A stretch of DNA of 48,006 nucleotides from a virus (Duplodnaviria; Heunggongvirae; Uroviricota; Caudoviricetes): the IMG/VR virus record IMGVR_UViG_2541047905_000004, positions 1 through 48,006 of that record; one strand, 5' to 3'. Shown piece after piece: positions 14,255 to 34,066 of this stretch; position 1 is the stretch's first letter; each line of letters begins with the position of its first letter. The notes under the pieces are model-generated. The model had not been told where the DNA came from, made no database searches, and was given only the letters and a program-made list of their open reading frames with translations. The translations under genes and the position numbers were made by a program.

Positions 14255-14257
14255 TCC

Positions 14258-15670: not shown

Positions 15671-15673
15671 ATT

Positions 15674-15889: not shown

Positions 15890-16385
15890 ACGCTGCCTTG
15901 TCGGGGCCGTGCTGGCTATTGCTGCCACGCTGCCGGGTTTTCAGCAGCTTCACACCTCCGTGGAAGGGCTGAAACTGATTGCCGATTACGAAGGTTGTCG
16001 TCTGCAGCCGTATCAGTGCAGCGCGGGTGTCTGGACCGACGGCATTGGTAATACATCGGGCGTCATCCCGGGCAAAACCATTACGGAACGACAGGCAGCG
16101 GAAGGGCTGATCTCCAACGTGCTGCGTGTGGAGCGGGCGCTGGAAAGGTGTGTGAAGCAACAGCCGCCGCAGAAGGTGTATGACGCTGCGGTGTCGTTTG
16201 CCTTCAACGTGGGAACGGGAAATGCCTGCAGTTCCACACTGGTGAAATTACTCAATCAGCGGCGCTGGGCGGATGCGTGCCGACAGTTGCCGCGCTGGGT
16301 TTATGTAAAAGGTGTTTTTAATCAGGGGCTGGATAACCGCCGTGCGCGGGAGATGGCCTGGTGCCTTAAAGGAGCTGGACTATGA
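15870..16385 (+). CDS. SAR-type endolysin (T4-lysozyme-like muramidase)
   Basis: ATG at 15870 after GGGAGGA; weakly hydrophobic Gly/Ala-rich N-terminus (CLVGAVLAIAATLPG) followed by an E...D...T catalytic pattern (EGLKLIADYEG...DGIGNT). Confidence 0.8.
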   Translation: MNPSIVKRCLVGAVLAIAATLPGFQQLHTSVEGLKLIADYEGCRLQPYQCSAGVWTDGIGNTSGVIPGKTITERQAAEGLISNVLRVERALERCVKQQPPQKVYDAAVSFAFNVGTGNACSSTLVKLLNQRRWADACRQLPRWVYVKGVFNQGLDNRRAREMAWCLKGAGL

Positions 16386-16810
16386 CGCGTGCTCTGGCAG
16401 TAGTGGTGGCGCTGGCACTCGTTGCGCTGGGCTGGCAGTCGAGGCGGCTTAACAGCGCCAGCCACACCATCGAAACGCAGCGCGCGGCGCTGAAAAGTAA
16501 AGCGCAGGAACTAACGAAGAAAAATAGCCAGCTGATCGGTCTGTCCATTCTGGCTGAAACCAACAACCGGGAGCAGGCGCGGCTCTATGCCGACGCAGAA
16601 CAGACCAGCGCACTGCTGAGACAACGACAACACCGGATTGAGGAACTGAAACGTGAGAACGAGGATTTACGCCGCTGGGCTGATACTCCTTTGCCTGCTG
16701 ACATTATCCGGCTGCGGGAACGCCCCACGCTCACCGGAGGTGCAGCTTACCGTCAGTGGTTGTCCGCGAGTGACGCCGTGTCGGCTGGAGCAGGCAGCGC
16801 CGCGCACTAA
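16382..16810 (+). CDS. i-spanin (Rz/LysB-like)
   Basis: N-terminal TM (ALAVVVALALVALGW) and a coiled-coil-like Q/R/E-rich body; start overlaps the endolysin stop. Confidence 0.6.
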   Translation: MTRALAVVVALALVALGWQSRRLNSASHTIETQRAALKSKAQELTKKNSQLIGLSILAETNNREQARLYADAEQTSALLRQRQHRIEELKRENEDLRRWADTPLPADIIRLRERPTLTGGAAYRQWLSASDAVSAGAGSAAH

Positions 16811-16943
16811 TGGTGATCTGAACGCGTTGCTGGATGAAACGGAGGCTGCCTGGGCGGTCTGTGCAGACAAAGTGGACATGATTATTGCGTGTCAGGAGCG
16901 AAACAGTGAACAAACCACAATCCCTGCGCCACGCCCTCAATAA
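16653..16943 (+). CDS. o-spanin lipoprotein (Rz1/LysC-like), overlapping the i-spanin in another frame
   Basis: GTG start at 16653; lipobox LTLSGC in MRTRIYAAGLILLCLLTLSGC; Pro-rich; overlaps the i-spanin 3' half and the start of R. Confidence 0.5.
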   Translation: MRTRIYAAGLILLCLLTLSGCGNAPRSPEVQLTVSGCPRVTPCRLEQAAPRTNGDLNALLDETEAAWAVCADKVDMIIACQERNSEQTTIPAPRPQ

Positions 16944-17337
16944 AGCGGTGCCTTATGTCCGCAATAACCCGGACAAACTGCATCTGTTTGTGGATAACGG
17001 TTCGCTGGTTGCCACAGGGGCCAGCTCCATGTCGTGGGAGTACCGTTACACCCTGAACGCGGTGATTGAGGATTTCAGCGGCGACCAGAATCTGCTGATG
17101 GCCCCGGTTTTGCTGTGGCTGAGGGATAACCAGCCCGATGCCATCAATAACCCGGCGTTACGGGAAAAACTATTCACCTTTGAGGTGGATATTCTGCGCA
17201 ACGATGTCTGTGATATCAGCCTGAACCTGCAACTGACGGAGCGTGTGCTGGTCCGCACTGACGGCAGTGTGTCGAGCGTTGAAGCTGTAGCAGAACCCGA
17301 TGAACCTGAAGAAATGTGGACGGTGAAACGTGGCTGA
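16906..17337 (+). CDS. R: Tail completion protein R (gpR-like)
   Basis: GTG at 16906, 8 nt after AGGAG (track ORF starts at TTG 16885); similar to P2 R as recalled (LRRAL...IFVDNGS...RYTLN). Confidence 0.75.
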   Translation: MNKPQSLRHALNKAVPYVRNNPDKLHLFVDNGSLVATGASSMSWEYRYTLNAVIEDFSGDQNLLMAPVLLWLRDNQPDAINNPALREKLFTFEVDILRNDVCDISLNLQLTERVLVRTDGSVSSVEAVAEPDEPEEMWTVKRG

Positions 17338-17773
17338 ACTGCAGAAGGTGGACGACTGGTTGAGTGCCTTGCTGGCGAATCTGGAACCAGCCACGAGAAG
17401 TCGCATGATGCGCCAGCTGGCGCAGGAACTGCGCAGGACACAACAGAAGAACATCAGGATGCAGCGCAATCCAGATGGCAGTAGTTATGAACCGCGACGG
17501 GTAACAGCACGCAGTAAAAAGGGGCGTATCAAACGTCAGATGTTTGCAAAGCTGCGCACCACAAAATACCTGAAAACTGCCGCCAGCGCCGATTCTGCCA
17601 GCGTGCAGTTTGAAGGTAAGGTACAGCGCATTGCCCGTGTTCACCATTACGGCCTGCGTGATCGCGTCAGCCGCAAAGGACCGGAGGTCCGTTATGCAGA
17701 GCGGCAGTTACTTGGCATAGATTCTAAAATAACCGCCGTTATTCGTAATAAGCTATTTGAGTTTATTAAATAA
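17330..17773 (+). CDS. S: Tail completion / virion morphogenesis protein S (gpS-like)
   Basis: GTG start at 17330 directly after the in-frame stop; 147 aa; follows R. Confidence 0.8.
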   Translation: MAELQKVDDWLSALLANLEPATRSRMMRQLAQELRRTQQKNIRMQRNPDGSSYEPRRVTARSKKGRIKRQMFAKLRTTKYLKTAASADSASVQFEGKVQRIARVHHYGLRDRVSRKGPEVRYAERQLLGIDSKITAVIRNKLFEFIK

Positions 17774-17779
17774 AAACTC

Positions 17780-19576
17780 TCAGGATTGTGATAAATGTAT
17801 TAAACATTGACAAAAATATTTAATGTCGTCACATATTTCATCTTTATTCATGTGTTCCAAAACTTCATCTCGAGTAATTGAGAAGTTATGTTTTAGTGAA
17901 TTTTCGCCACTAATGAAAATTTCTTTTCCATGTGCGTCTTTTAAGGCTGCAGCTATATCTGTAGATGTTATCGAATCAGGGATAGCTAACGCATGTCTAT
18001 CTCTAAAGAAATTACGTATATCTTCTTCAGATGTGTCTGCAGCTCTTGCGATGGCTGATATATCTAGAAAGTAATTTTCAATGTGTCTGCGACGCCATTT
18101 CATGGCTAAAAAATCACTATCGCCGTGATTTGTTGATTTATCTTTAAGATCAGCTCCTACAGAATGGTCGCTATCATCATCACGATCGCGCATGCTAATG
18201 GCTTTTAAGTCAGGAATTTCATTTTTTAATTGTTTGTATAATTGAAATCTTTCTGAAGATTTTCCAGTCCAAAGCCATGTGACAATATTTTTGGGCCATG
18301 TTAGTTCTAACTTTTCAAATATTTTTTTTAGGAATCTTTCATCGCTAACACCTTCAACAATCAACAATTTTTTGTCTTCGGTAAGCTTATGGATTTTAGG
18401 GCTAAAGATCGTGCCAATTCCACTTAATAGACCTATTTTTTCATTATCAGATCCAAGGTATTTCCCTCTGGACTTTGATAGTGCCAAAATTTTCTGTGGT
18501 TCATAAGCCCTGATTAATTCAGTAGAGTGTGTTGCCAATAGGACCTGCTTTCCTTTTTTAATTGTTATCTCTTCTAAACGTTCAGTTAGATTTTTCTGTA
18601 ATTGTGTATGCAGGTGAGCATCTGGTTCATCTAGTAGAATGACATTAAATTCTTCTGATAAGGCCAATGTATATACACTTAACCATTGAAGAAAACCGCT
18701 TCCTTCAACCATAATATCTCTAGCATTGAAGTTTTTGTGTTTTTTAAATTGATAACCATTGACAACGCCAGCGACACATTCAATTTTTAAGTAACTATGA
18801 TATTGTTCATTAAATGGAGTTACTTCAAGTTTTAAAGAAAAAAGGTCAAAGAGTGTTTTTTGTAATATTTCCCAAGGATCTGTTTCCCTTAATAAATTAA
18901 GGTCTTTATTGGCGATTTTGTTTCGCCCTTCTTTTAACTTCCGGCGTTTGTTTTGATTCTCTAAGTGAATATCGTAAATAGAATTTCTGATTACTCCACC
19001 AGAAAGCCCCTGACCGATTAGTCGATTCCTCATTGCTGGGCTAAGACGGCTTTCTCGGTCTGTAATACCTGCAAATGGAGGGAGATAAGCGATCTGGGGT
19101 ATATTCTCATTATTTGGAGAACCATCGTCATTCTGTATTTCTTGTAAAGCAAGGTTGCTAGATGTATTTTTTATAAATAATCTATCATTTGCTAATGATA
19201 AACCGATCTCTAAAAACTTCTCATTTTTTAAAATATCATCCCAAAAAAGCTTTATCTTTAGAGTATAACCATCATCTTCTGTTTGTTTTTGAGATTTTAA
19301 ATTGGTCCATAAGTGGCTTAAAGACGGTATAAACATCGGCGTGAAATCGACAATGCCTAGTCCGACACCTTGATTTGTCGCATTTTCAGTCCAACTCACT
19401 CTTCCTTTTTCAATTTCTAAAAGAGTCTTACAGAATTGCCACGTTGCCATTGCTTGCAGTAACGATGACTTACCGGAATTGTTCCCGCCGACTAGGAGGC
19501 TTAATTCGTCATTTAATTGTATTGTTGAGTTTTTATATTTTTTGAATTTCTTAAGCTCTACTTTTTTTATGTACAT
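17780..19576 (-). CDS. ABC-type ATPase fused to a Toprim-like C-terminal domain (OLD-family / PARIS AriA-AriB-like); candidate anti-phage defence or exclusion gene
   Basis: 598 aa, ATG at 19576 (rc). Walker A GGNNSGKSS, signature-like GLSGG, Walker B ILLDEPDAHLH, H-loop LLATHS; C-terminal LLIVEGVSDERF and SMRDRDDDSD acidic motifs. AT-rich, opposite strand, inserted between S and V. Confidence 0.6.
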   Translation of the reverse strand: MYIKKVELKKFKKYKNSTIQLNDELSLLVGGNNSGKSSLLQAMATWQFCKTLLEIEKGRVSWTENATNQGVGLGIVDFTPMFIPSLSHLWTNLKSQKQTEDDGYTLKIKLFWDDILKNEKFLEIGLSLANDRLFIKNTSSNLALQEIQNDDGSPNNENIPQIAYLPPFAGITDRESRLSPAMRNRLIGQGLSGGVIRNSIYDIHLENQNKRRKLKEGRNKIANKDLNLLRETDPWEILQKTLFDLFSLKLEVTPFNEQYHSYLKIECVAGVVNGYQFKKHKNFNARDIMVEGSGFLQWLSVYTLALSEEFNVILLDEPDAHLHTQLQKNLTERLEEITIKKGKQVLLATHSTELIRAYEPQKILALSKSRGKYLGSDNEKIGLLSGIGTIFSPKIHKLTEDKKLLIVEGVSDERFLKKIFEKLELTWPKNIVTWLWTGKSSERFQLYKQLKNEIPDLKAISMRDRDDDSDHSVGADLKDKSTNHGDSDFLAMKWRRRHIENYFLDISAIARAADTSEEDIRNFFRDRHALAIPDSITSTDIAAALKDAHGKEIFISGENSLKHNFSITRDEVLEHMNKDEICDDIKYFCQCLIHLSQS

Positions 19577-19666
19577 AGTGGAGATACCTAACCTTTATTA
19601 AACCAAATCGCCTCATCATGAGAACTGGGACAGTTTACTATCTACTGAATTGTTTCTAAAGAGAAT

Positions 19667-19684
19667 TGTATCAAGTTCCAGACA
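19667..19684. promoter_or_regulatory. Late promoter activator site (TGT-N12-ACA) upstream of V
   Basis: TGT at 19667-19669, ATCAAGTTCCAG, ACA at 19682-19684; about 50 bp upstream of the V ATG; -10-like TATGTG follows. Confidence 0.4.
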
Positions 19685-19732
19685 ATTACAATCCATTTGG
19701 GACACGCCCAATATGTGGCAATTTTTTAAGCT

Positions 19733-20311
19733 ATGAATGCACAATTAACCGAAATCATGCGCCTTATCACTAACCTGATCCGCACTGGTGTAGTCACCGA
19801 AGTGGACCGGGAAAACTGGCTTTGCCGGGTGAAAACGGGCGACCTTGAAACCAACTGGATCAGCTGGCTGACGCTGCGTGCCGGGAATGCCCGCACATGG
19901 TGGCGACCATCGGAAGGTGAGCAGGTGGTGGTGCTGAGTCTGGCAGGCAATCTGGAAACCGCGTTTGCGCTGCCCGCCATCTATTCGAATCAGTTCGCTC
20001 CACCGTCGACGTCGGCAGACGCCTGCGTGACAGAACATCCTGACGGCGGCTGGTTTGAATACGAACCCACCACCGGGCGCTGGTATGTCAGGGGCATCAA
20101 ATCCATGGTCATTGAGACTGCCGACAACATCACCCTGAAAACCAGTGAGTTTGTGCTGGAGGCTGACCGCACGCGTATTAACAGCGAAGTAGTGATCAAT
20201 GGTGGCGTTACCCAGGGCGGCGGAGTGATGAGTTCTAACGGGATCGTCGTTGATGCGCATCAGCATACTGGCGTCCTGAAAGGCGGCGACACAACCGGAG
20301 GCCCGGTATGA
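19733..20311 (+). CDS. V: Baseplate assembly / spike protein V (gpV-like)
   Basis: 192 aa; aligns by eye with P2 gpV (…RTWW.PS.GEQV…AF.LP.IYS…SNG…H.H.G…GGTTG). Confidence 0.85.
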   Translation: MNAQLTEIMRLITNLIRTGVVTEVDRENWLCRVKTGDLETNWISWLTLRAGNARTWWRPSEGEQVVVLSLAGNLETAFALPAIYSNQFAPPSTSADACVTEHPDGGWFEYEPTTGRWYVRGIKSMVIETADNITLKTSEFVLEADRTRINSEVVINGGVTQGGGVMSSNGIVVDAHQHTGVLKGGDTTGGPV

Positions 20312-20667
20312 CGCTTTATAGCGGGATGAACAATACCAGCGGTAAAGCCATTACTGATATTGACCATCTGCGCCAGTCGGTGCGGGACATTCTGCTGACA
20401 CCGCAGGGTAGCCGTATTGCCCGTCGTGAATATGGCTCCCTGCTGTTGGCGCTAATAGACCAGCCACAAAATCCGGCGTTACGCCTGCAGGTCATGTCGG
20501 CAGTGTATGTGGCGCTGAGTCGCTGGGAGCCACGGCTGACGCTGGATTCCATCACCATTAACAGCAATTTTGACGGTTCAATGGTGGTGGAGCTGACCGG
20601 GCGGCGTAATAACGGTGTGCCTGTTTCCCTTTCCGTATCAACAGGAGCAGAGAATGGCAGTGATTGA
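20308..20667 (+). CDS. W: Baseplate protein W (gpW / gp25-like)
   Basis: ATG at 20308 after GGAGG, overlapping the V stop; 119 aa. Confidence 0.8.
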   Translation: MTLYSGMNNTSGKAITDIDHLRQSVRDILLTPQGSRIARREYGSLLLALIDQPQNPALRLQVMSAVYVALSRWEPRLTLDSITINSNFDGSMVVELTGRRNNGVPVSLSVSTGAENGSD

Positions 20668-21562
20668 CCTTTCGCAGTTGCCTGCGCCGCAGATTGTGGA
20701 TGTGCCGGACTTTGAGACGCTGCTTGCCGAACGCAAGGCCGAATTTGTTGCGCTTCATCCGAAAGATGAGCAGGAAGCAGTGATCCGCACGCTTGAACTG
20801 GAATCTGAACCCGTCACCAAATTGCTGCAGGAGAACGCTTACCGTGAGTTGCTTCTGCGCCAGCGCATTAACGAAGCCGCGCAGGCTGTGATGGTGGCTT
20901 ACGCTATGGGCAGCGATCTTGACCAGCTCGCTGCCAACTACAACGTGAAACGCCTGACGGTGACGCCTGCTGATAATGACGCTGTGCCGCCCGTTGCAGC
21001 TGTGATGGAAAGCGATGAAGCGTTACGCCTGCGTGTGCCTGCAGCCTTTGAAGGGCTTTCAGTTGCGGGGCCAACTGCAGCTTATGAATTTCATGCCCGA
21101 AGCGCCGACGGTCGGGTGGCGGATGCCAGTGCAACCAGCCCGGCACCTGCAGAGGTGGTGCTGACTGTCCTTAGCCGCGAAGGCGATGGAACTGCAGAAA
21201 AAGATCTGCTGGACGTGGTGGAAAAAGCTCTGAACAGTGAGAACGTCCGCCCGGTGGCTGACCGTCTGACGGTTCGCAGCGCAGAAATCATCCCGTATCG
21301 CGTGGAAGCCACCATTTTTCTCTATCCGGGACCGGAAGCAGAGCCGGTAATGGCAGCGGCAAAAGCCAGCCTGCAGAAGTACATCGCCAGTCAGACGCGT
21401 CTTGGTCGGGATATTCGCCGTAGCGCCATCTTTGCCGCACTGCATGTTGAGGGTGTGCAGCGTGTGGAGCTGGCTTCTCCTCTGGCGGATGTGGTCCTGA
21501 ACAAAACACAGGCGGCATCATGTACGCAGTGGAGCGTAACCAACGGAGGAACGGATGAATAG
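20654..21562 (+). CDS. J: Baseplate assembly protein J (gpJ-like)
   Basis: ATG at 20654 after GGAGCAGAGA (track ORF starts earlier); about 302 aa. Confidence 0.85.
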   Translation: MAVIDLSQLPAPQIVDVPDFETLLAERKAEFVALHPKDEQEAVIRTLELESEPVTKLLQENAYRELLLRQRINEAAQAVMVAYAMGSDLDQLAANYNVKRLTVTPADNDAVPPVAAVMESDEALRLRVPAAFEGLSVAGPTAAYEFHARSADGRVADASATSPAPAEVVLTVLSREGDGTAEKDLLDVVEKALNSENVRPVADRLTVRSAEIIPYRVEATIFLYPGPEAEPVMAAAKASLQKYIASQTRLGRDIRRSAIFAALHVEGVQRVELASPLADVVLNKTQAASCTQWSVTNGGTDE

Positions 21563-22160
21563 TCTGCTGCCACCGGGTTCAACACCACTGGAGCGCCGAC
21601 TGGCGCAAACCTGCAGCGGGATTTCTGATCTGCAGGTGCCGCTTCGTGACTTGTGGAATCCGGCAACCTGCCCGGTCAGTTTCCTGCCTTATCTCGCCTG
21701 GGCGTTCTCTGTGGATCGCTGGGACGAGGGCTGGACAGAAAGCGTCAAGCGCCAGGTGGTGAAGGATGCTTTTTATATTCATCAGCATAAAGGGACCACC
21801 AGTGCCGTGCGTCGGGTGGTGGAGCCGTTCGGCTTTCTGATCCGCATTATTGAGTGGTGGCAGACCGGAGAGACACCGGGCACGTTTCGTCTGGATATCG
21901 GCGTGCAGGACCAGGGCATCACTGAAGATACCTATCTGGAACTTGAGCGACTGATAAGCGATGCCAAACCATGTAGCCGTCACATGATCGGCATGTCCAT
22001 CAACCTGCAGACCAGCGGCCCGCATTGGGTGGGAGCCGCCAGCTATCTTGGCGAAGAAATCACGATCTATCCGTATATCAACGAAACAATTATTTCCGGC
22101 GGCACCGCGCATGAAGGCGGGGCGGTCCATGTTATTGACACAATGAGAGTGAATCCATGA
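21555..22160 (+). CDS. I: Baseplate / tail formation protein I (gpI-like)
   Basis: ATG at 21555 after GGAGG; 201 aa; between J and H. Confidence 0.8.
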
Positions 22161-23557
22161 GCACAAAATTTTATACCCTGCTGACGGATATTGGCGCGGC
22201 GAAACTTGCCAGCGCCGCCGCGCTCGGTGTGCCTTTAAAAATTACCCATATGGCGGTCGGCGATGGCGGCGGAACATTGCCAACGCCGGACGCAAAGCAG
22301 ACAGCATTAGTAAATGAGAAACGCCGGGCTGCGCTGAATATGCTCTATATCGACCCGCAGAACAGCAGCCAGATTATTGCTGAACAGGTGATCCCTGAAA
22401 ACGAGGGCGGTTGGTGGATACGTGAAGTGGGCCTGTTTGATGAGTCCGGGGCATTGATTGCCGTGGGCAACTGCCCGGAAAGCTATAAGCCGCAACTGGC
22501 TGAAGGCAGCGGGCGTACCCAGACCGTGCGCATGGTGCTGATTACCAGCAGCACGGACAATATCACCCTGAAAATCGACCCTGCCGTAGTGCTGGCAACC
22601 CGCAAGTATGTGGATGACAAGGTACTGGAGCTGAAGGTGTACGTAGATGACCTGATGGCAAAACATCTTGCTGCACAGGACCCACATTCACAGTACGCGC
22701 CAAAAGCCAGCCCGACATTTACCGGAACCCCCAAAGCGCCAACGCCAGCGGCGGGGAATAATACCACGCGGGTTGCGACCACTGCGTTTGTACAGGCGGC
22801 ACTGACGGCCCTTATTAATGGTGCGCCAGCCACGCTGGACACGCTGAAAGAAATAGCCGCAGCCATTAACAATGATCCGAATTTCAGTACCACCATTAAC
22901 AATGCGCTGGCACTAAAAGCACCGTTGTCGAGTCCGGCACTCACCGGAACGCCAACAGCCCCCACGGCGGCGCAGTCGGTCAACAATACACAGATTGCCA
23001 CTACGGCTTTTGTGAAATCGGCGATTGCAGGAATGGTGGGTTCTGCACCTGCTGCACTGGATACACTGAACGAACTGGCGGCGGCACTGGGGAATGATCC
23101 GAACTTTGCCACGACAATGCTTAATGCGCTGGCAGGTAAACAACCGCTGGACAATACGCTTACCAATTTGAGTGGAAAGGATGTGGCTGGTCTTCTCGCA
23201 TACCTTGGTTTGGGAAAAGCGGCTAAAAGGAATGTAGGGACAGGGGCGAATCAGATACCTGATATGGGTAGCTTCACGCTTTCTGTTTCAGGTACTGGAT
23301 ATCAAAAATTACCATCAGGTTTTATTCTTCAGTGGGGCTCAATCGGCGCACCAGGCATTGCACAGGATGTAGTAACCCATTTCCCGATTGCATTTCCAAA
23401 CAGATGTCTGCGTGTTTTGGTCTCACAAGACTACACACCAGATAGCGGGGCTGTTGGTTATATTGCCTGTGCAGGTTTTAGTCCCGACCCGGTTAAATTT
23501 ATATCCAGAGCCAGTACTCCTGGCCTCGGCGCTTCATTTTTAGCGTTAGGCTGTTAA
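22157..23557 (+). CDS. H: Tail fibre protein H, variant 1 (constant N-terminal part plus Mu/P1 S-type C-terminal module)
   Basis: 466 aa; N-terminus [18 protein letters not shown]...MAVGDGGG typical of P2 gpH; C-terminal 114 aa (from 23216) unique to this copy, with [13 protein letters not shown]. Confidence 0.85.
23193..23218. other. Candidate serine-invertase crossover site (hix/gix/cix/pix-like), left
   Basis: TTCTCGCATACC-TT-GGTTTGGGAAAA: two 12-bp imperfect inverted half-sites (9/12) around a central dinucleotide; inverted copy of the right site with 25/26 identity; lies exactly at the constant/variable junction of H. Confidence 0.55.
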
Positions 23558-23578
23558 TTTAGCTATATGGAGTGAAAA

Positions 23579-24019
23579 ATGAATTACATATATTCCGCGA
23601 CTACAAACTCTTTCTATCCGCTGGAGATGAAAGAGGATTACACTCAAGCTGACTCATGGCCAGATGATGCTGTTGAAGTTGATGAGCAAGTGTATATTGA
23701 GTTTTCCGGATTACCGCCGAAAGGAAAAATCCGTATCGCTGGAGAAAATGGTTTTCCTGCATGGTCTGAAATTCCACCACCAACACATGAGGAACAGATT
23801 GCTGCAGCCGAACTGGAAAAGCAGCAACTGATTAATCAGGCCAACGATTATATGAACAGTAAACAATGGCCTGGTAAAGCGGCTATTGGCCGGCTGAAAG
23901 GTGAGGAACTGGCGCAATATAATTTGTGGCTGGATTATCTGGACGCACTGGAACTGGTCGATACTTCCGGTGCGCCAGATATTGAATGGCCTACGCCTCC
24001 GGCAGTTCAGGCCAGATGA
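23579..24019 (+). CDS. Tail fibre assembly protein (Tfa / gpG-like), cognate to H variant 1
   Basis: ATG at 23579, 21 nt after the H stop, with GGAGTGA; C-terminal WLDYLDAL...WPTPP Tfa-type motif. Confidence 0.75.
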   Translation: MNYIYSATTNSFYPLEMKEDYTQADSWPDDAVEVDEQVYIEFSGLPPKGKIRIAGENGFPAWSEIPPPTHEEQIAAAELEKQQLINQANDYMNSKQWPGKAAIGRLKGEELAQYNLWLDYLDALELVDTSGAPDIEWPTPPAVQAR

Positions 24020-24584
24020 CGTCCGGCGCTGTGCTGGTATCTGTTGCCGTCACCGCGTCAATGTAATCCAGCACAGCGTTAAGTCGGGTGTTTTCTGGCT
24101 GCGTCAGCTTCCGCCCAGCCTGTAATTTCAGTTGAATCAGACTGATGGAAGCCATTGCAGCATCAATCAGCGACTGGCGCTGTGCTTCTGCCGCTTCTAC
24201 TGCGGCGCTATGCTGTGCCTCGGTATCCGTCACCCATTTCTCACCATCCCATTTATCGTATGGCGTTAACGGTGAAAGCGTGACATAACCGTCTTTGATG
24301 GCACCGATATAATCCACTGTAACAGCTGCGCCATTTTCAGTTGAGTAAACGGTCTCATTGCGATGGTCTTCTTCATGGCTCCATCCCTTACCCGTAAATA
24401 CTGCCACTTTTCCCGGAATGTTTTCGCCCGGGTCAATACCAGTGGAACAGGCGGGTATACTTACGCCAGTATTAATATATTCATCAGACCAGCCGGTATA
24501 TTCATACGTTACTGCATTATAATAAAAACAACGCATATCGCCCGGCACTGTAGCCAGCCCATTTTCATCAAAAACAGGTTTCAT
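23991..24584 (-). CDS. Tail fibre assembly protein (Tfa / gpG-like), cognate to H variant 2
   Basis: ATG at 24584 (rc) overlapping the H-variant-2 stop (TAATG); C-terminal VLDYIDAV...WPELP Tfa motif; 3' end overlaps the other Tfa by 29 bp. Confidence 0.75.
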   Translation of the reverse strand: MKPVFDENGLATVPGDMRCFYYNAVTYEYTGWSDEYINTGVSIPACSTGIDPGENIPGKVAVFTGKGWSHEEDHRNETVYSTENGAAVTVDYIGAIKDGYVTLSPLTPYDKWDGEKWVTDTEAQHSAAVEAAEAQRQSLIDAAMASISLIQLKLQAGRKLTQPENTRLNAVLDYIDAVTATDTSTAPDVIWPELPEA

Positions 24585-26164
24585 TATTTAGCCCTCACCA
24601 GAAAGTTAAATGCAATATTTCGTGGACGGGTTTCTGTATCTACATTTCCACTAATTTCACCATAACGTTTAACACTACGAGAGCTAAGAGCTCGTAGTGA
24701 GGAAGGCACCTTAAGACCGGGTTCGTCCGTTTTAACTATTCCCCCGTCACCGTATGTGGCCAGTATTCCTGGGTTTACTCCCTCCCGTGCACTTCCTGCG
24801 GCAAGCCCGTCCCCCGTCCACAACTCCATATTGTGTGCATGATCCATAATTGTGTGTGATTGCCCTGAAAGTAGGGTACGTCCGACATCAATCCCGCGCC
24901 CATCATCCCAGATACGAATGAAATCACCCCGTGCGTCAGGTAATGCTAGCGCCGGAAACACTTTCGCCAGCACAGGGTAATCAGTGGCAGAGAATTTCGC
25001 GCCGTTGAACTTCAAAAACACCATACTGGACCAACTGTCGATTACAGTATTTGGCATTGCGGCGGACGGCCAGAAGAACGGAACGCCAATAGCTGGAGCA
25101 CCTTCTCCCAAACCAAGGTATGCGAGAAGACCAGCCACATCCTTTCCACTCAAATTGGTAAGCGTATTGTCCAGCGGTTGTTTACCTGCCAGCGCATTAA
25201 GCATTGTCGTGGCAAAGTTCGGATCATTCCCCAGTGCCGCCGCCAGTTCGTTCAGTGTATCCAGTGCAGCAGGTGCAGAACCCACCATTCCTGCAATCGC
25301 CGATTTCACAAAAGCCGTAGTGGCAATCTGTGTATTGTTGACCGACTGCGCCGCCGTGGGGGCTGTTGGCGTTCCGGTGAGTGCCGGACTCGACAACGGT
25401 GCTTTTAGTGCCAGCGCATTGTTAATGGTGGTACTGAAATTCGGATCATTGTTAATGGCTGCGGCTATTTCTTTCAGCGTGTCCAGCGTGGCTGGCGCAC
25501 CATTAATAAGGGCCGTCAGTGCCGCCTGTACAAACGCAGTGGTCGCAACCCGCGTGGTATTATTCCCCGCCGCTGGCGTTGGCGCTTTGGGGGTTCCGGT
25601 AAATGTCGGGCTGGCTTTTGGCGCGTACTGTGAATGTGGGTCCTGTGCAGCAAGATGTTTTGCCATCAGGTCATCTACGTACACCTTCAGCTCCAGTACC
25701 TTGTCATCCACATACTTGCGGGTTGCCAGCACTACGGCAGGGTCGATTTTCAGGGTGATATTGTCCGTGCTGCTGGTAATCAGCACCATGCGCACGGTCT
25801 GGGTACGCCCGCTGCCTTCAGCCAGTTGCGGCTTATAGCTTTCCGGGCAGTTGCCCACGGCAATCAATGCCCCGGACTCATCAAACAGGCCCACTTCACG
25901 TATCCACCAACCGCCCTCGTTTTCAGGGATCACCTGTTCAGCAATAATCTGGCTGCTGTTCTGCGGGTCGATATAGAGCATATTCAGCGCAGCCCGGCGT
26001 TTCTCATTTACTAATGCTGTCTGCTTTGCGTCCGGCGTTGGCAATGTTCCGCCGCCATCGCCGACCGCCATATGGGTAATTTTTAAAGGCACACCGAGCG
26101 CGGCGGCGCTGGCAAGTTTCGCCGCGCCAATATCCGTCAGCAGGGTATAAAATTTTGTGCTCAT
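24584..26164 (-). CDS. H: Tail fibre protein H, variant 2 (same constant N-terminus plus tail-collar-type C-terminal module)
   Basis: 526 aa; first ~347 aa identical to variant 1; unique C-terminus (coded 24584..25105) contains LPDARGDFIRIWDDGRGID...SGQSHTIMDHAH, typical of phage tail collar domains. Confidence 0.85.
   Translation of the reverse strand: MSTKFYTLLTDIGAAKLASAAALGVPLKITHMAVGDGGGTLPTPDAKQTALVNEKRRAALNMLYIDPQNSSQIIAEQVIPENEGGWWIREVGLFDESGALIAVGNCPESYKPQLAEGSGRTQTVRMVLITSSTDNITLKIDPAVVLATRKYVDDKVLELKVYVDDLMAKHLAAQDPHSQYAPKASPTFTGTPKAPTPAAGNNTTRVATTAFVQAALTALINGAPATLDTLKEIAAAINNDPNFSTTINNALALKAPLSSPALTGTPTAPTAAQSVNNTQIATTAFVKSAIAGMVGSAPAALDTLNELAAALGNDPNFATTMLNALAGKQPLDNTLTNLSGKDVAGLLAYLGLGEGAPAIGVPFFWPSAAMPNTVIDSWSSMVFLKFNGAKFSATDYPVLAKVFPALALPDARGDFIRIWDDGRGIDVGRTLLSGQSHTIMDHAHNMELWTGDGLAAGSAREGVNPGILATYGDGGIVKTDEPGLKVPSSLRALSSRSVKRYGEISGNVDTETRPRNIAFNFLVRAK
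25103..25128. other. Candidate serine-invertase crossover site, right
   Basis: TTCTCCCAAACC-AA-GGTATGCGAGAA; resembles hixL as I recall it (TTCTTGAAAACCAAGGTTTTTGATAA); inverted relative to the left site. Confidence 0.55.
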
Positions 26165-26766
26165 GGATTCACTCTCATTGTGTCAATAACATGGACCGCC
26201 CCGCCTTCATGCGCGGTGCCGCCGGAAATAATTGTTTCGTTGATATACGGATAGATCGTGATTTCTTCGCCAAGATAGCTGGCGGCTCCCACCCAATGCG
26301 GGCCGCTGGTCTGCAGGTTGATGGACATGCCGATCATGTGACGGCTACATGGTTTGGCATCGCTTATCAGTCGCTCAAGTTCCAGATAGGTATCTTCAGT
26401 GATGCCCTGGTCCTGCACGCCGATATCCAGACGAAACGTGCCCGGTGTCTCTCCGGTCTGCCACCACTCAATAATGCGGATCAGAAAGCCGAACGGCTCC
26501 ACCACCCGACGCACGGCACTGGTGGTCCCTTTATGCTGATGAATATAAAAAGCATCCTTCACCACCTGGCGCTTGACGCTTTCTGTCCAGCCCTCGTCCC
26601 AGCGATCCACAGAGAACGCCCAGGCGAGATAAGGCAGGAAACTGACCGGGCAGGTTGCCGGATTCCACAAGTCACGAAGCGGCACCTGCAGATCAGAAAT
26701 CCCGCTGCAGGTTTGCGCCAGTCGGCGCTCCAGTGGTGTTGAACCCGGTGGCAGCAGACTATTCAT
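26161..26766 (-). CDS. I: Baseplate / tail formation protein I (mirror copy)
   Basis: Mirror of 21555..22160; identical translation. Confidence 0.8.
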   Translation of the reverse strand: MNSLLPPGSTPLERRLAQTCSGISDLQVPLRDLWNPATCPVSFLPYLAWAFSVDRWDEGWTESVKRQVVKDAFYIHQHKGTTSAVRRVVEPFGFLIRIIEWWQTGETPGTFRLDIGVQDQGITEDTYLELERLISDAKPCSRHMIGMSINLQTSGPHWVGAASYLGEEITIYPYINETIISGGTAHEGGAVHVIDTMRVNP

Positions 26767-27667
26767 CCGTTCCTCCGTTGGTTACGCTCCACTGCGTACA
26801 TGATGCCGCCTGTGTTTTGTTCAGGACCACATCCGCCAGAGGAGAAGCCAGCTCCACACGCTGCACACCCTCAACATGCAGTGCGGCAAAGATGGCGCTA
26901 CGGCGAATATCCCGACCAAGACGCGTCTGACTGGCGATGTACTTCTGCAGGCTGGCTTTTGCCGCTGCCATTACCGGCTCTGCTTCCGGTCCCGGATAGA
27001 GAAAAATGGTGGCTTCCACGCGATACGGGATGATTTCTGCGCTGCGAACCGTCAGACGGTCAGCCACCGGGCGGACGTTCTCACTGTTCAGAGCTTTTTC
27101 CACCACGTCCAGCAGATCTTTTTCTGCAGTTCCATCGCCTTCGCGGCTAAGGACAGTCAGCACCACCTCTGCAGGTGCCGGGCTGGTTGCACTGGCATCC
27201 GCCACCCGACCGTCGGCGCTTCGGGCATGAAATTCATAAGCTGCAGTTGGCCCCGCAACTGAAAGCCCTTCAAAGGCTGCAGGCACACGCAGGCGTAACG
27301 CTTCATCGCTTTCCATCACAGCTGCAACGGGCGGCACAGCGTCATTATCAGCAGGCGTCACCGTCAGGCGTTTCACGTTGTAGTTGGCAGCGAGCTGGTC
27401 AAGATCGCTGCCCATAGCGTAAGCCACCATCACAGCCTGCGCGGCTTCGTTAATGCGCTGGCGCAGAAGCAACTCACGGTAAGCGTTCTCCTGCAGCAAT
27501 TTGGTGACGGGTTCAGATTCCAGTTCAAGCGTGCGGATCACTGCTTCCTGCTCATCTTTCGGATGAAGCGCAACAAATTCGGCCTTGCGTTCGGCAAGCA
27601 GCGTCTCAAAGTCCGGCACATCCACAATCTGCGGCGCAGGCAACTGCGAAAGGTCAATCACTGCCAT
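26759..27667 (-). CDS. J: Baseplate assembly protein J (mirror copy)
   Basis: Mirror of 20654..21562; identical translation. Confidence 0.85.
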   Translation of the reverse strand: MAVIDLSQLPAPQIVDVPDFETLLAERKAEFVALHPKDEQEAVIRTLELESEPVTKLLQENAYRELLLRQRINEAAQAVMVAYAMGSDLDQLAANYNVKRLTVTPADNDAVPPVAAVMESDEALRLRVPAAFEGLSVAGPTAAYEFHARSADGRVADASATSPAPAEVVLTVLSREGDGTAEKDLLDVVEKALNSENVRPVADRLTVRSAEIIPYRVEATIFLYPGPEAEPVMAAAKASLQKYIASQTRLGRDIRRSAIFAALHVEGVQRVELASPLADVVLNKTQAASCTQWSVTNGGTDE

Positions 27668-28013
27668 TCTCTGCTCCTGTTGATACGGAAAGGGAAACAG
27701 GCACACCGTTATTACGCCGCCCGGTCAGCTCCACCACCATTGAACCGTCAAAATTGCTGTTAATGGTGATGGAATCCAGCGTCAGCCGTGGCTCCCAGCG
27801 ACTCAGCGCCACATACACTGCCGACATGACCTGCAGGCGTAACGCCGGATTTTGTGGCTGGTCTATTAGCGCCAACAGCAGGGAGCCATATTCACGACGG
27901 GCAATACGGCTACCCTGCGGTGTCAGCAGAATGTCCCGCACCGACTGGCGCAGATGGTCAATATCAGTAATGGCTTTACCGCTGGTATTGTTCATCCCGC
28001 TATAAAGCGTCAT
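27654..28013 (-). CDS. W: Baseplate protein W (mirror copy)
   Basis: Mirror of 20308..20667; identical translation. Confidence 0.8.
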   Translation of the reverse strand: MTLYSGMNNTSGKAITDIDHLRQSVRDILLTPQGSRIARREYGSLLLALIDQPQNPALRLQVMSAVYVALSRWEPRLTLDSITINSNFDGSMVVELTGRRNNGVPVSLSVSTGAENGSD

Positions 28014-28588
28014 ACCGGGCCTCCGGTTGTGTCGCCGCCTTTCAGGACGCCAGTATGCTGATGCGCATCAACGACGATCCCGTTAGAACTCATCACTCCG
28101 CCGCCCTGGGTAACGCCACCATTGATCACTACTTCGCTGTTAATACGCGTGCGGTCAGCCTCCAGCACAAACTCACTGGTTTTCAGGGTGATGTTGTCGG
28201 CAGTCTCAATGACCATGGATTTGATGCCCCTGACATACCAGCGCCCGGTGGTGGGTTCGTATTCAAACCAGCCGCCGTCAGGATGTTCTGTCACGCAGGC
28301 GTCTGCCGACGTCGACGGTGGAGCGAACTGATTCGAATAGATGGCGGGCAGCGCAAACGCGGTTTCCAGATTGCCTGCCAGACTCAGCACCACCACCTGC
28401 TCACCTTCCGATGGTCGCCACCATGTGCGGGCATTCCCGGCACGCAGCGTCAGCCAGCTGATCCAGTTGGTTTCAAGGTCGCCCGTTTTCACCCGGCAAA
28501 GCCAGTTTTCCCGGTCCACTTCGGTGACTACACCAGTGCGGATCAGGTTAGTGATAAGGCGCATGATTTCGGTTAATTGTGCATTCAT
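28010..28588 (-). CDS. V: Baseplate spike protein V (mirror copy)
   Basis: Mirror of 19733..20311; identical translation. Confidence 0.85.
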   Translation of the reverse strand: MNAQLTEIMRLITNLIRTGVVTEVDRENWLCRVKTGDLETNWISWLTLRAGNARTWWRPSEGEQVVVLSLAGNLETAFALPAIYSNQFAPPSTSADACVTEHPDGGWFEYEPTTGRWYVRGIKSMVIETADNITLKTSEFVLEADRTRINSEVVINGGVTQGGGVMSSNGIVVDAHQHTGVLKGGDTTGGPV

Positions 28589-28636
28589 AGCTTAAAAAAT
28601 TGCCACATATTGGGCGTGTCCCAAATGGATTGTAAT

Positions 28637-28654
28637 TGTCTGGAACTTGATACA
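28637..28654. promoter_or_regulatory. Late promoter TGT-N12-ACA site upstream of V (mirror copy)
   Basis: Mirror of 19667..19684. Confidence 0.4.
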
Positions 28655-28744
28655 ATTCTCTTTAGAAACAATTCAGTAGATAGTAAACTGTCCCAGTTCT
28701 CATGATGAGGCGATTTGGTTTAATAAAGGTTAGGTATCTCCACT

Positions 28745-30541
28745 ATGTACATAAAAAAAGTAGAGCTTAAGAAATTCAAAAAATATAAAAACTCAACAAT
28801 ACAATTAAATGACGAATTAAGCCTCCTAGTCGGCGGGAACAATTCCGGTAAGTCATCGTTACTGCAAGCAATGGCAACGTGGCAATTCTGTAAGACTCTT
28901 TTAGAAATTGAAAAAGGAAGAGTGAGTTGGACTGAAAATGCGACAAATCAAGGTGTCGGACTAGGCATTGTCGATTTCACGCCGATGTTTATACCGTCTT
29001 TAAGCCACTTATGGACCAATTTAAAATCTCAAAAACAAACAGAAGATGATGGTTATACTCTAAAGATAAAGCTTTTTTGGGATGATATTTTAAAAAATGA
29101 GAAGTTTTTAGAGATCGGTTTATCATTAGCAAATGATAGATTATTTATAAAAAATACATCTAGCAACCTTGCTTTACAAGAAATACAGAATGACGATGGT
29201 TCTCCAAATAATGAGAATATACCCCAGATCGCTTATCTCCCTCCATTTGCAGGTATTACAGACCGAGAAAGCCGTCTTAGCCCAGCAATGAGGAATCGAC
29301 TAATCGGTCAGGGGCTTTCTGGTGGAGTAATCAGAAATTCTATTTACGATATTCACTTAGAGAATCAAAACAAACGCCGGAAGTTAAAAGAAGGGCGAAA
29401 CAAAATCGCCAATAAAGACCTTAATTTATTAAGGGAAACAGATCCTTGGGAAATATTACAAAAAACACTCTTTGACCTTTTTTCTTTAAAACTTGAAGTA
29501 ACTCCATTTAATGAACAATATCATAGTTACTTAAAAATTGAATGTGTCGCTGGCGTTGTCAATGGTTATCAATTTAAAAAACACAAAAACTTCAATGCTA
29601 GAGATATTATGGTTGAAGGAAGCGGTTTTCTTCAATGGTTAAGTGTATATACATTGGCCTTATCAGAAGAATTTAATGTCATTCTACTAGATGAACCAGA
29701 TGCTCACCTGCATACACAATTACAGAAAAATCTAACTGAACGTTTAGAAGAGATAACAATTAAAAAAGGAAAGCAGGTCCTATTGGCAACACACTCTACT
29801 GAATTAATCAGGGCTTATGAACCACAGAAAATTTTGGCACTATCAAAGTCCAGAGGGAAATACCTTGGATCTGATAATGAAAAAATAGGTCTATTAAGTG
29901 GAATTGGCACGATCTTTAGCCCTAAAATCCATAAGCTTACCGAAGACAAAAAATTGTTGATTGTTGAAGGTGTTAGCGATGAAAGATTCCTAAAAAAAAT
30001 ATTTGAAAAGTTAGAACTAACATGGCCCAAAAATATTGTCACATGGCTTTGGACTGGAAAATCTTCAGAAAGATTTCAATTATACAAACAATTAAAAAAT
30101 GAAATTCCTGACTTAAAAGCCATTAGCATGCGCGATCGTGATGATGATAGCGACCATTCTGTAGGAGCTGATCTTAAAGATAAATCAACAAATCACGGCG
30201 ATAGTGATTTTTTAGCCATGAAATGGCGTCGCAGACACATTGAAAATTACTTTCTAGATATATCAGCCATCGCAAGAGCTGCAGACACATCTGAAGAAGA
30301 TATACGTAATTTCTTTAGAGATAGACATGCGTTAGCTATCCCTGATTCGATAACATCTACAGATATAGCTGCAGCCTTAAAAGACGCACATGGAAAAGAA
30401 ATTTTCATTAGTGGCGAAAATTCACTAAAACATAACTTCTCAATTACTCGAGATGAAGTTTTGGAACACATGAATAAAGATGAAATATGTGACGACATTA
30501 AATATTTTTGTCAATGTTTAATACATTTATCACAATCCTGA
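28745..30541 (+). CDS. OLD/PARIS-like ABC ATPase-Toprim fusion (mirror copy)
   Basis: Mirror of 17780..19576; identical 598-aa translation. Confidence 0.6.
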   Translation: MYIKKVELKKFKKYKNSTIQLNDELSLLVGGNNSGKSSLLQAMATWQFCKTLLEIEKGRVSWTENATNQGVGLGIVDFTPMFIPSLSHLWTNLKSQKQTEDDGYTLKIKLFWDDILKNEKFLEIGLSLANDRLFIKNTSSNLALQEIQNDDGSPNNENIPQIAYLPPFAGITDRESRLSPAMRNRLIGQGLSGGVIRNSIYDIHLENQNKRRKLKEGRNKIANKDLNLLRETDPWEILQKTLFDLFSLKLEVTPFNEQYHSYLKIECVAGVVNGYQFKKHKNFNARDIMVEGSGFLQWLSVYTLALSEEFNVILLDEPDAHLHTQLQKNLTERLEEITIKKGKQVLLATHSTELIRAYEPQKILALSKSRGKYLGSDNEKIGLLSGIGTIFSPKIHKLTEDKKLLIVEGVSDERFLKKIFEKLELTWPKNIVTWLWTGKSSERFQLYKQLKNEIPDLKAISMRDRDDDSDHSVGADLKDKSTNHGDSDFLAMKWRRRHIENYFLDISAIARAADTSEEDIRNFFRDRHALAIPDSITSTDIAAALKDAHGKEIFISGENSLKHNFSITRDEVLEHMNKDEICDDIKYFCQCLIHLSQS

Positions 30542-30547
30542 GAGTTT

Positions 30548-30991
30548 TTATTTAATAAACTCAAATAGCTTATTACGAATAACGGCGGTTATTTTAGAAT
30601 CTATGCCAAGTAACTGCCGCTCTGCATAACGGACCTCCGGTCCTTTGCGGCTGACGCGATCACGCAGGCCGTAATGGTGAACACGGGCAATGCGCTGTAC
30701 CTTACCTTCAAACTGCACGCTGGCAGAATCGGCGCTGGCGGCAGTTTTCAGGTATTTTGTGGTGCGCAGCTTTGCAAACATCTGACGTTTGATACGCCCC
30801 TTTTTACTGCGTGCTGTTACCCGTCGCGGTTCATAACTACTGCCATCTGGATTGCGCTGCATCCTGATGTTCTTCTGTTGTGTCCTGCGCAGTTCCTGCG
30901 CCAGCTGGCGCATCATGCGACTTCTCGTGGCTGGTTCCAGATTCGCCAGCAAGGCACTCAACCAGTCGTCCACCTTCTGCAGTTCAGCCAC
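30548..30991 (-). CDS. S: Tail completion protein S (mirror copy)
   Basis: Mirror of 17330..17773; identical translation. Confidence 0.8.
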   Translation of the reverse strand: MAELQKVDDWLSALLANLEPATRSRMMRQLAQELRRTQQKNIRMQRNPDGSSYEPRRVTARSKKGRIKRQMFAKLRTTKYLKTAASADSASVQFEGKVQRIARVHHYGLRDRVSRKGPEVRYAERQLLGIDSKITAVIRNKLFEFIK

Positions 30992-31415
30992 GTTTCACCG
31001 TCCACATTTCTTCAGGTTCATCGGGTTCTGCTACAGCTTCAACGCTCGACACACTGCCGTCAGTGCGGACCAGCACACGCTCCGTCAGTTGCAGGTTCAG
31101 GCTGATATCACAGACATCGTTGCGCAGAATATCCACCTCAAAGGTGAATAGTTTTTCCCGTAACGCCGGGTTATTGATGGCATCGGGCTGGTTATCCCTC
31201 AGCCACAGCAAAACCGGGGCCATCAGCAGATTCTGGTCGCCGCTGAAATCCTCAATCACCGCGTTCAGGGTGTAACGGTACTCCCACGACATGGAGCTGG
31301 CCCCTGTGGCAACCAGCGAACCGTTATCCACAAACAGATGCAGTTTGTCCGGGTTATTGCGGACATAAGGCACCGCTTTATTGAGGGCGTGGCGCAGGGA
31401 TTGTGGTTTGTTCAC
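30984..31415 (-). CDS. R: Tail completion protein R (mirror copy)
   Basis: Mirror of 16906..17337. Confidence 0.75.
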   Translation of the reverse strand: MNKPQSLRHALNKAVPYVRNNPDKLHLFVDNGSLVATGASSMSWEYRYTLNAVIEDFSGDQNLLMAPVLLWLRDNQPDAINNPALREKLFTFEVDILRNDVCDISLNLQLTERVLVRTDGSVSSVEAVAEPDEPEEMWTVKRG

Positions 31416-31668
31416 TGTTTCGCTCCTGACACGCAATAATCATGTCCACTTTGTCTGCACAGACCGCCCAGGCAGCCTCCGTTTCATCCAGCAACGCGTT
31501 CAGATCACCATTAGTGCGCGGCGCTGCCTGCTCCAGCCGACACGGCGTCACTCGCGGACAACCACTGACGGTAAGCTGCACCTCCGGTGAGCGTGGGGCG
31601 TTCCCGCAGCCGGATAATGTCAGCAGGCAAAGGAGTATCAGCCCAGCGGCGTAAATCCTCGTTCTCAC
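31378..31668 (-). CDS. o-spanin lipoprotein (mirror copy)
   Basis: Mirror of 16653..16943. Confidence 0.5.
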   Translation of the reverse strand: MRTRIYAAGLILLCLLTLSGCGNAPRSPEVQLTVSGCPRVTPCRLEQAAPRTNGDLNALLDETEAAWAVCADKVDMIIACQERNSEQTTIPAPRPQ

Positions 31669-31939
31669 GTTTCAGTTCCTCAATCCGGTGTTGTCGTTGT
31701 CTCAGCAGTGCGCTGGTCTGTTCTGCGTCGGCATAGAGCCGCGCCTGCTCCCGGTTGTTGGTTTCAGCCAGAATGGACAGACCGATCAGCTGGCTATTTT
31801 TCTTCGTTAGTTCCTGCGCTTTACTTTTCAGCGCCGCGCGCTGCGTTTCGATGGTGTGGCTGGCGCTGTTAAGCCGCCTCGACTGCCAGCCCAGCGCAAC
31901 GAGTGCCAGCGCCACCACTACTGCCAGAGCACGCGTCAT
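31511..31939 (-). CDS. i-spanin (mirror copy)
   Basis: Mirror of 16382..16810. Confidence 0.6.
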   Translation of the reverse strand: MTRALAVVVALALVALGWQSRRLNSASHTIETQRAALKSKAQELTKKNSQLIGLSILAETNNREQARLYADAEQTSALLRQRQHRIEELKRENEDLRRWADTPLPADIIRLRERPTLTGGAAYRQWLSASDAVSAGAGSAAH

Positions 31940-32647: not shown

Positions 32648-32650
32648 AAT

Positions 32651-34063: not shown

Positions 34064-34066
34064 GGA

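Follow-up and report, generated by a model that had tools for sequence, protein, structure and literature searches.

Two complete tail-fibre genes, each followed by a tail-fibre assembly gene, can be read in draft scaffold KE701826.1 of assembly GCA_000460555.1, and this raises the question of whether the phage has two fibres or two states of one. The entire 48-kb scaffold (48,006 nucleotides, referred to as the window) was analysed. The locus is most probably a Din-family (Hin/Gin/Cin/Pin-type) invertible segment that interrupts the tail-fibre gene H in an E. coli prophage of the P2/186 type, and the right arm of the scaffold is misassembled; we assign this combined reading a probability of roughly 0.9. 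A first-pass annotation, made from the sequence alone, had proposed that two unrelated tips with dedicated chaperones alternate on the same virion scaffold. The two tips with their Tfa genes are retained here, and Din sites and both orientations of the segment are added; the second complete fibre gene is lost to a fold-back of the scaffold.

Fibre gene H, its two tips and their Tfa proteins

The coding features at the centre of the window are the following.

22157..23206, plus strand: Sc, constant part of the tail-fibre gene H, P2 gpH-type N-terminus and shaft up to the crossover core (Pfam PF12571 Phage_tail_fib, E 3e-65)
23207..23557, plus strand: Sv1, variable tip 1, gp53-like C-terminal domain according to Pfam PF21882 and profile matches
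23579..24019, plus strand: tfa1, tail-fibre assembly protein predicted to pair with Sv1, 146 aa (Caudo_TAP, E 8e-38)
23991..24584, minus strand: tfa2, tail-fibre assembly protein predicted to pair with Sv2, 197 aa (Caudo_TAP, E 1e-27)
24584..25114, minus strand: Sv2, variable tip 2, T4 gp37/gp12-type collar tip with one HxH motif according to its family profile against the PDB

Two fibre ORFs are open in the window. The ORF 22157..23557 (plus strand) encodes an Sc-Sv1 fusion of 466 aa, and the ORF 24584..26164 (minus strand) encodes an Sc-Sv2 fusion of 526 aa, which contains the motif LPDARGDFIRIWDDGRGID...DHAH as previously noted. The two proteins have 353 identical residues and diverge after ...AYLGLG (nt 23216 on the plus strand, nt 25105 on the minus strand). 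Sc is 50% identical to the N-terminus of P2 H (376 aa) and 79% identical to residues 253-412 of P1 S.

Beyond the shaft, no similarity between tip 1 and tip 2 was detectable (BLASTP E 3.9), and the profile-profile match of the two proteins ends at LGLGE. Residues 384-466 of the 466-aa protein match PF21882 (Gp53-like_C) with 51.9 bits (cut-off 24.9; E 1.2e-13), and this domain was found in all 120 listed tip 1 homologues. The PDB entries matched by the tip 1 profile are 9zd7 (gp92), 4mtm (AP22 gp53) and the fibres of the R1/R2 pyocins. The assignment of tip 1 to a Mu/P1 S-type in the first-pass annotation was rejected: there is no similarity to the tips of Mu S/S', P1 S/S' or P2 H (E > 3; the best BLASTP hit had E 3.1 over 9 residues). 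For tip 2, the family profile yielded 2xgf (the T4 gp37 tip) with E 2e-17, 9cuy with 4e-17 and gp12 with about 1e-4. The score of tip 2 itself against Pfam Collar (PF07484) is 16.5 bits, which is under the curated cut-off of 24 bits; relatives at 69-77% identity carry PF07484.

As judged by Pfam and PDB profiles, tips 1 and 2 belong to different families. AlphaFold2 models of both tips, computed from homologue alignments, reached a mean pLDDT of 33.5 and 41.7 and were unusable; the fold assignments of the tips therefore rest on sequence profiles. Probable reasons for the low pLDDT are that no homologue falls below 68-75% identity and that the fibres are obligate intertwined trimers. C-termini of one family or a frameshifted pseudogene had been named as findings that would speak against two alternative tips. 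Neither was observed: the families differ, both ORFs are open, and neither tip module is a pseudogene.

Both assembly proteins match PF02413 Caudo_TAP (Tfa1 with 129.9 bits, Tfa2 with 97 bits; curated cut-off 22.1). Their genes converge and overlap at their 3' ends by 29 bp (23991..24019), which confirms the previous description. The part common to Tfa1 and Tfa2 comprises only the C-terminal 72 aa (38% identity), including the LDY.DA...WP motif. This agrees with the modular TFA model presented in PMC9608196, which cites North 2019. In analogy to this precedent, the distinct N-terminal domain of each Tfa would bind its own tip, and the C-terminal helical domain common to both would drive trimerisation. 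We infer that each Tfa and its adjoining tip are cognate. Both pairs of tip and Tfa could serve as parts for fibre engineering.

Crossover sites and the folded-back right arm

Din sites were searched for as 26-bp elements of the form 12-2-12 with a half-site of about TTCTCnnAAACC, in inverted orientation. The window contains two matches, compared to 0 expected by chance (0 in 100 shuffles). Applied to Mu and P1, this pattern finds the annotated gix and cixR sites, respectively. A third crossover site, as in a shufflon, was sought in the window, and the total remained at two. The sites, the segment that they enclose and the flanking copy are listed here.

23193..23218, plus strand: left 26-bp crossover site TTCTCGCATACC-TT-GGTTTGGGAAAA, core dinucleotide 23205-23206, within coding sequence (codons for ...AYLGLG)
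25103..25128, minus strand: right 26-bp crossover site TTCTCGCATACC-TT-GGTTTGGGAGAA, core 25115-25116
23207..25114, no strand: invertible segment, 1908 bp between both core dinucleotides, found in both orientations relative to invertase and H
25117..48006, minus strand: fold-back copy of 315..23204 (Sc, I, J, W, V, an AriAB-like ATPase, head genes etc.), exact reverse complement of the left arm

A spacing of 1908 bp was also found in the finished genomes L001 and L002. As is typical of Din-type segments, the left site lies in the fibre ORF and the reading frame is kept in both orientations, each of which gives the fibre a different C-terminus with the tfa gene of that tip behind it. The outer half of the right site, as written in the window, is the Sc half-site; in real genomes, the invertase-side half-site is found there. 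In a scan of 22000..26300, promoter and terminator matches were about as numerous as expected by chance, and none of the terminators lay between the convergent tfa genes.

According to the proposed mechanism, a serine invertase would recombine the two inverted sites at the central dinucleotides 23205-06 and 25115-16. Because the left site is in frame in H, the flip of 1908 bp would join the constant shaft of 350 residues to either tip. The alternatives would be Sv1 (gp53-like tip) together with tfa1, or Sv2 (T4 gp37-like collar tip) together with tfa2. With respect to expression, we infer that whichever pair points in the same direction as the late V-W-J-I-H operon would be the only one produced. 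The virion progeny would then carry either of two adsorption specificities; on the basis of precedent, it is plausible to assume that the two tips recognise different receptors.

The sole non-palindromic part of the window is the invertible segment. Positions 315..23215 and 25106..48006 are exact reverse complements of one another, with base-for-base identity of the two arms over 22.9 kb. It is solely this folding-back that gives rise to a second full-length fibre ORF. On this origin the first-pass annotation was silent.

The complete and isogenic chromosome OZ038772.1 (L013) is 100% identical to the scaffold over 8960 nt, as far as the core dinucleotide at 25116. Beyond this position it reads CGTTTATGAAAA, followed by the invertase gene and then by the tail sheath gene. 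Moreover, Sc on both sides of the segment was found in 0 of 5426 complete E. coli genomes. The most satisfactory explanation for 25117..48006 is therefore an artefact of assembly, outside the biological locus. The assembler would have entered the segment via the Sc-Sv1 junction and left it via the Sc-Sv2 junction, which would have folded the right arm back. Since such a path needs reads of both orientation states, the culture sequenced for KE701826.1 probably contained the two of them side by side. A literature search on palindromic contigs retrieved no relevant paper. In the public draft scaffold KE701826.1, the 48-kb fold-back at the switch makes phage genes covering 23 kb appear twice and conceals the tail genes and the invertase; gene counts taken from it at face value, or a reading of two fibre genes, are wrong.

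Orientation states, invertase and rival explanations

Among the 5426 complete genomes, junction probes detected 70 with Sc-Sv1 and 73 with Sc-Sv2. The plus state occurs, for example, in CE0021a and L013, and the flipped state in WS0115A and KOr024, the last of which has an intact ORF of 526 aa. The scaffold KE701826.1 itself holds both Sc junctions. Parts of the 2.5-kb region match 2829 of the 5426 genomes, with a median of 2 places per matching genome and a maximum of 11. In other drafts, separate small contigs with one junction each were found. For the flipped orientation, PGAP sometimes labels the intact fibre gene a pseudogene (L016), a label that can mislead calls of prophage completeness.

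A tblastn search with PinE found no invertase in the window. Consequently, it is the isogenic genome and the fold-back that support switching in this particular strain. In OZ038772.1, the gene directly downstream of the segment encodes an intact invertase of 188 aa (Resolvase/HTH_7) with a conserved catalytic N-terminus; it is 86% identical to PinE, 79% to Cin and 74% to Gin. An invertase also adjoins the segment in CE0021a, WS0115A, EC931 and KOr024. The Fis-dependent recombinational enhancer of Din systems is situated in the 5' part of the invertase gene and hence outside the window; at the corresponding positions of the L013 gene, 23/26 and 12/13 nt match the two ends of the annotated P1 enhancer, which could be due to coding conservation. 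The small neighbouring ORFs at 6993-9383 gave nothing with PADLOC and Pfam.

Din invertases such as Hin and Gin act intramolecularly on supercoiled DNA and need a synapse bound by Fis and the enhancer; intermolecular events are strongly disfavoured. This property bears on the possibility that the 48-kb palindrome is a real head-to-head inverted dimer of the phage genome, in which two complete fibre genes coexist and which arose by intermolecular recombination of the left site with the left or right site of another copy. Such a dimer would agree with the position of the arm ends, which lie exactly at the crossover core where the invertase cuts, and with the occurrence of the same joint in the independent assembly JNQN01000024.1. 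However, that contig ends 1.4 kb further on, and the Sc-flanked arrangement was absent from all finished genomes. Furthermore, every related prophage has the tail genes FI to D, ogr and an invertase gene, all of them missing from the scaffold, and both scaffold ends lie in an IS4 repeat, a typical location of contig breaks. Inverted genome dimers are not known to accumulate in vivo as a by-product of Din invertases. We therefore regard a real dimer as extremely improbable.

The cassette might also be a frozen relic that does not switch in this strain, with the two junctions contributed by a mixed culture or by two related prophages in one genome. The lack of an invertase in the window, the frequency of several related cassettes within one E. 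coli genome and the small one-junction contigs of other drafts are compatible with this idea. In contrast, two diverged prophages would not yield arms that are identical base for base, and the isogenic finished genome has an intact invertase. The near-equal split of 70:73 between the orientations fits frequent switching, and experiments have demonstrated inversion both in e14 and in P2-like EPEC prophages (PMC4272514). A relic is accordingly very unlikely. A different role of the alternative fibre protein, namely to block the adsorption of other phages in the lysogen, besides or instead of determining host range, is suggested by the e14 chimera StfE2, which is formed by inversion of the P segment and is reported to block T2 adsorption (Kirigo et al. 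2025, PMC12529663). Tip 2 and Tfa2 are related to StfE (41% identity) and TfaE (63%), respectively. The identity to StfE is modest, though; moreover, the fibre gene belongs to a late operon under Ogr control in a P2/186-like prophage that appears intact, so that expression in the lysogen is not expected. We thus consider adsorption blocking improbable to a similarly high degree, and the locus is best read as an invertible fibre segment whose right flank was misassembled.

Comparison with known fibre systems

The invertible fibre segment is of an already known kind, and biologically it is nothing new. Fibre-tip swapping driven by invertases has been textbook knowledge since the 1980s (Mu G, P1 C, e14 P). 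With P2, the prophage has in common the fibre N-terminus, the gene order V-W-J-I-H-G and a sheath gene downstream. P2 differs in that it contains a single fixed tip and G gene and no invertase, with Z/fun located after G; its H tip is unrelated to both tips described here.

The Mu G/Gin and P1 C/Cin systems correspond in mechanism, site consensus and the logic of Sc, Sv-U / U'-Sv' and invertase, and Gin and Cin are 74-79% identical to the invertase of OZ038772.1. In contrast, neither tip resembles the S or S' tips (E > 0.8), the Tfa proteins are only distantly related to U and U', and the segments of Mu and P1 are about twice as long or longer. In Mu, U and U' do not overlap.

P2-like prophages of EPEC E2348/69 (Goldberg et al. 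2014, PMC4272514) are described as likewise possessing an invertase, inverted repeats and alternative fibre C-termini. Their fibre variants coexist in clonal cultures according to sequencing and PCR (PMC4272514). One of these loci is a three-site shufflon, whereas the window contains two sites.

The P segment of e14 with PinE (stfP-tfaP / tfaE-stfE-pinE in K-12) agrees in architecture and in the 26-bp site type, and the inner half-site GGTTTGGGAGAA is identical. The convergent tfa genes of K-12 also overlap by 29 bp, and the central 424 nt are 89% identical. At the protein level, the identity of Tfa2 to TfaE extends over the full length, and Tfa1 is 60% identical to TfaP over 102 aa. The cassette of an e14-like element of strain JB2 is 99.5% identical to the one described here. 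Tip 1, on the other hand, shows only 25% identity to StfP, and the segment of e14 is 1797 bp long instead of 1908 bp. Whereas e14 is a defective lambdoid remnant, the segment is here grafted on a full-length P2 gpH-type fibre of an apparently complete P2/186-like prophage.

Fibre locus and crossover sites

The open reading frames of the fibre locus, taken from the ORF listing, are arranged as follows.

Features of the fibre locus (window coordinates; V to H belong to the P2 baseplate/fibre operon)
19733..20311, plus strand, V
20308..20667, plus strand, W
20615..21562, plus strand, J
21555..22160, plus strand, I
22157..23557, plus strand, H, 466 aa
23579..24019, plus strand, tfa1, 146 aa
23991..24584, minus strand, tfa2, 197 aa, convergent with tfa1 (29-bp overlap)
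24584..26164, minus strand, second fibre ORF, 526 aa, preceding tfa2 on this strand

The 466-aa and 526-aa fibre proteins share 353 identical residues and diverge after ...AYLGLG. The motifs quoted in the first-pass annotation were found as written in these ORFs, and the convergent, overlapping tfa genes that it described are borne out by the coordinates. An imperfect inverted repeat of 18 nt within the tfa pair (23929..23946 / 24055..24072), which is also present in CE0021a and in a further finished genome, results from the LDY(L/I)DA motif encoded by both genes; no terminator-like feature was found at this repeat.

A 26-bp site, TTCTCGCATACC-TT-GGTTTGGGAAAA, is located at 23193..23218 at the edge of the unique centre of the window, and its near mirror lies at 25103..25128. 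The pattern of Hin/Gin/Cin/Pin sites matches the window exactly twice, at these two positions, and did not occur in 100 shuffles. With a looser version of the pattern, the Mu gix sites and P1 cixR were also found, at the crossover points given in their annotation. The two window sites have their core dinucleotides at 23205-06 and 25115-16; the intervening segment therefore comprises 1908 bp.

The complete chromosome OZ038772.1 is 100% identical to window positions 16157..25116 (8960 nt) and departs from the window directly after the core dinucleotide. Past the core, the other outer half-site (CGTTTATGAAAA) is followed by the gene for a 188-aa Resolvase/HTH_7 protein and by those for tail sheath, tube and tape measure. 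This recombinase is 86%, 79% and 74% identical to PinE, Cin and Gin, respectively. The annotation of CE0021a and EC931 gives the same order, H-tfa-tfa'-Sv'-recombinase-sheath (Sv' being the silent tip). In WS0115A, variable tip 2 (Sv2) is fused to H and variable tip 1 (Sv1) adjoins the recombinase. KOr024 is in the same flipped state and possesses an intact 526-aa ORF (3572..5152 of its locus). By means of 240-nt probes across each junction (coverage at least 80%), the junction of the constant part of H (Sc) with Sv1 was detected in 70 and the Sc-Sv2 junction in 73 of 5426 complete genomes. Both states of the segment exist in nature.

In the flipped-state genomes (KOr024; WS0115A, 6383..7888 of its locus), PGAP labels the fibre gene as pseudogene fragments, despite the intact ORF of KOr024. 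The silent tip copies are annotated as short stand-alone proteins of 124-189 aa whose starts lie in the flank on the invertase side.

Tips and chaperones

Tip 1 matches Pfam Gp53-like_C (E 1.2e-13), a domain present in 120/120 of its relatives among the matches listed, and its profile matches the solved fibres 9zd7 (gp92) and 4mtm (AP22 gp53) and the R1/R2 pyocin fibres. No similarity to the tips of Mu S/S', P1 S/S' or P2 H was found, and the earlier label "Mu/P1 S-type" is therefore wrong. Tip 2 scores 16.5 bits with Pfam Collar, which is under the 24-bit cut-off; PF07484 is carried by relatives at 69-77% identity, and a search with the family profile hit the tip of T4 gp37 (2xgf, E 2e-17), T4 gp12 and a further short tail fibre (9cuy). 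The match lists of the two profiles do not overlap, and BLASTP of tip 1 against tip 2 gave only E 3.9. Their profile-profile alignment ends at LGLGE, for which the crossover site codes. AlphaFold2 gave no usable model of either tip.

Tfa1 and Tfa2 are both Caudo_TAP proteins, whose likeness is confined to the last 72 residues (38% identity). This fits the modular picture of PMC9608196 (citing North et al. 2019), in which the variable N-terminal domain is responsible for tip binding and the conserved C-terminal helical domain for trimerisation. The core of the initial proposal, i.e. two unrelated tips that have their own chaperones and are used alternately, is upheld.

Fold-back scaffold and neighbouring genes

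The window is identical to the entire 48,006-bp scaffold KE701826.1 of the draft assembly GCA_000460555.1 and contains no Ns. The inverted repeat around the switch is not local but extends far beyond it: 25106..48006 is the exact reverse complement of 315..23215 (arms of 22.9 kb; first mismatches at 23216, 23220 and 23221). Every gene to the left of the fibre switch thus appears twice, and only the centre of about 1.9 kb, the switch itself, is unique. The left end lies inside an IS4 transposase fragment (Pfam Nterm_IS4, E 6e-33; 1..~560, minus strand) that is mirrored at the right end, so that both scaffold ends stop in a repeat. No serine recombinase is encoded in the window, and tail genes and ogr are missing, although every related prophage carries them.

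The right arm takes the place of the invertase flank and starts exactly at the crossover core. In none of the finished E. coli genomes does the fibre gene flank the segment at both ends; the matches span either positions 1-2217/2220 or 303-2500 of the query, and none reaches both its ends. The same turn occurs in an independent draft, JNQN01000024.1, whose contig ends 1.4 kb further on, and in other drafts each junction lies on a separate 2-kb contig. For these reasons we regard the right arm as an assembly artefact (probability about 0.9), whereas a real inverted dimer of 48 kb is highly improbable. The artefactual duplication and the lack of the invertase had escaped the first-pass annotation. 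The inverted repeat shared at the joint measures only about 15 nt, so that the Sc-Sv2 joint cannot be assembled unless it occurs in the reads. From this indirect evidence we infer that the sequenced DNA contained the segment in both orientations. The fold-back is the sole unusual element of the locus.

The IS4-family transposase N-terminus adjoins the gene for the CI repressor (949..1524). Related prophages show similarity only from position 563 onwards and have their integrase at this end; the IS may have interrupted the integrase end or taken its place. The genes S (tail) and V (baseplate) are separated by a gene on the opposite strand for a 598-aa AAA_15/AAA_21 ATPase (17780..19576, minus strand; mirrored at 28745..30541, plus strand). 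In PADLOC, AriAB (fused PARIS-type, E 1e-24) matches this protein best, ahead of the GajA and PtuA models; judging from its sequence, the gene probably constitutes anti-phage defence cargo at a P2 hotspot. It is present at the same position in some related prophages (EC931), whereas others (CE0021a) have none there. A variable region between replication gene A and the portal gene (6993..9383) contains ORFs such as 8697..9383 (228 aa) and 7458..7883 (minus strand, 141 aa), for which Pfam and PADLOC gave no match. Related prophages carry different cargo here, e.g. a TIGR02391 family protein, SIR2 or RES.

Comparison with known systems

In e14, TfaE is 63% identical to Tfa2 and TfaP 60% identical to Tfa1. 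Over the central 424 nt of the cassette, which comprise the 29-bp overlap, identity to K-12 e14 amounts to 89%; the tips and Tfa N-terminal domains thus appear to have been exchanged around a conserved middle. In an e14-like element of strain JB2, a cassette 99.5% identical to that of the window adjoins pinE. The constant part of the fibre is 50% identical to P2 H, which its N-terminus resembles, and its residues 181-340 (22697..23176) are 79% identical to residues 253-412 of P1 S. By its sequence, the fibre is a mosaic, and mosaics of this kind have been linked with horizontal exchange among P1, P2 and Mu.

Goldberg et al. 2014 (PMC4272514) showed by experiment that e14 and fibre loci of P2-like prophages undergo inversion. 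The e14 chimera generated by inversion is reported to be able to block T2 adsorption (PMC12529663), and the alternative fibre of the window might play a similar, minor role. However, the prophage appears intact and the fibre gene belongs to a late operon, which makes such a blocker unlikely. The locus is a classical invertible fibre segment of the type found in e14 (P/PinE), Mu (G/Gin) and P1 (C/Cin), here on a P2 gpH-type fibre, and invertible fibre systems of this kind are already known and very common.
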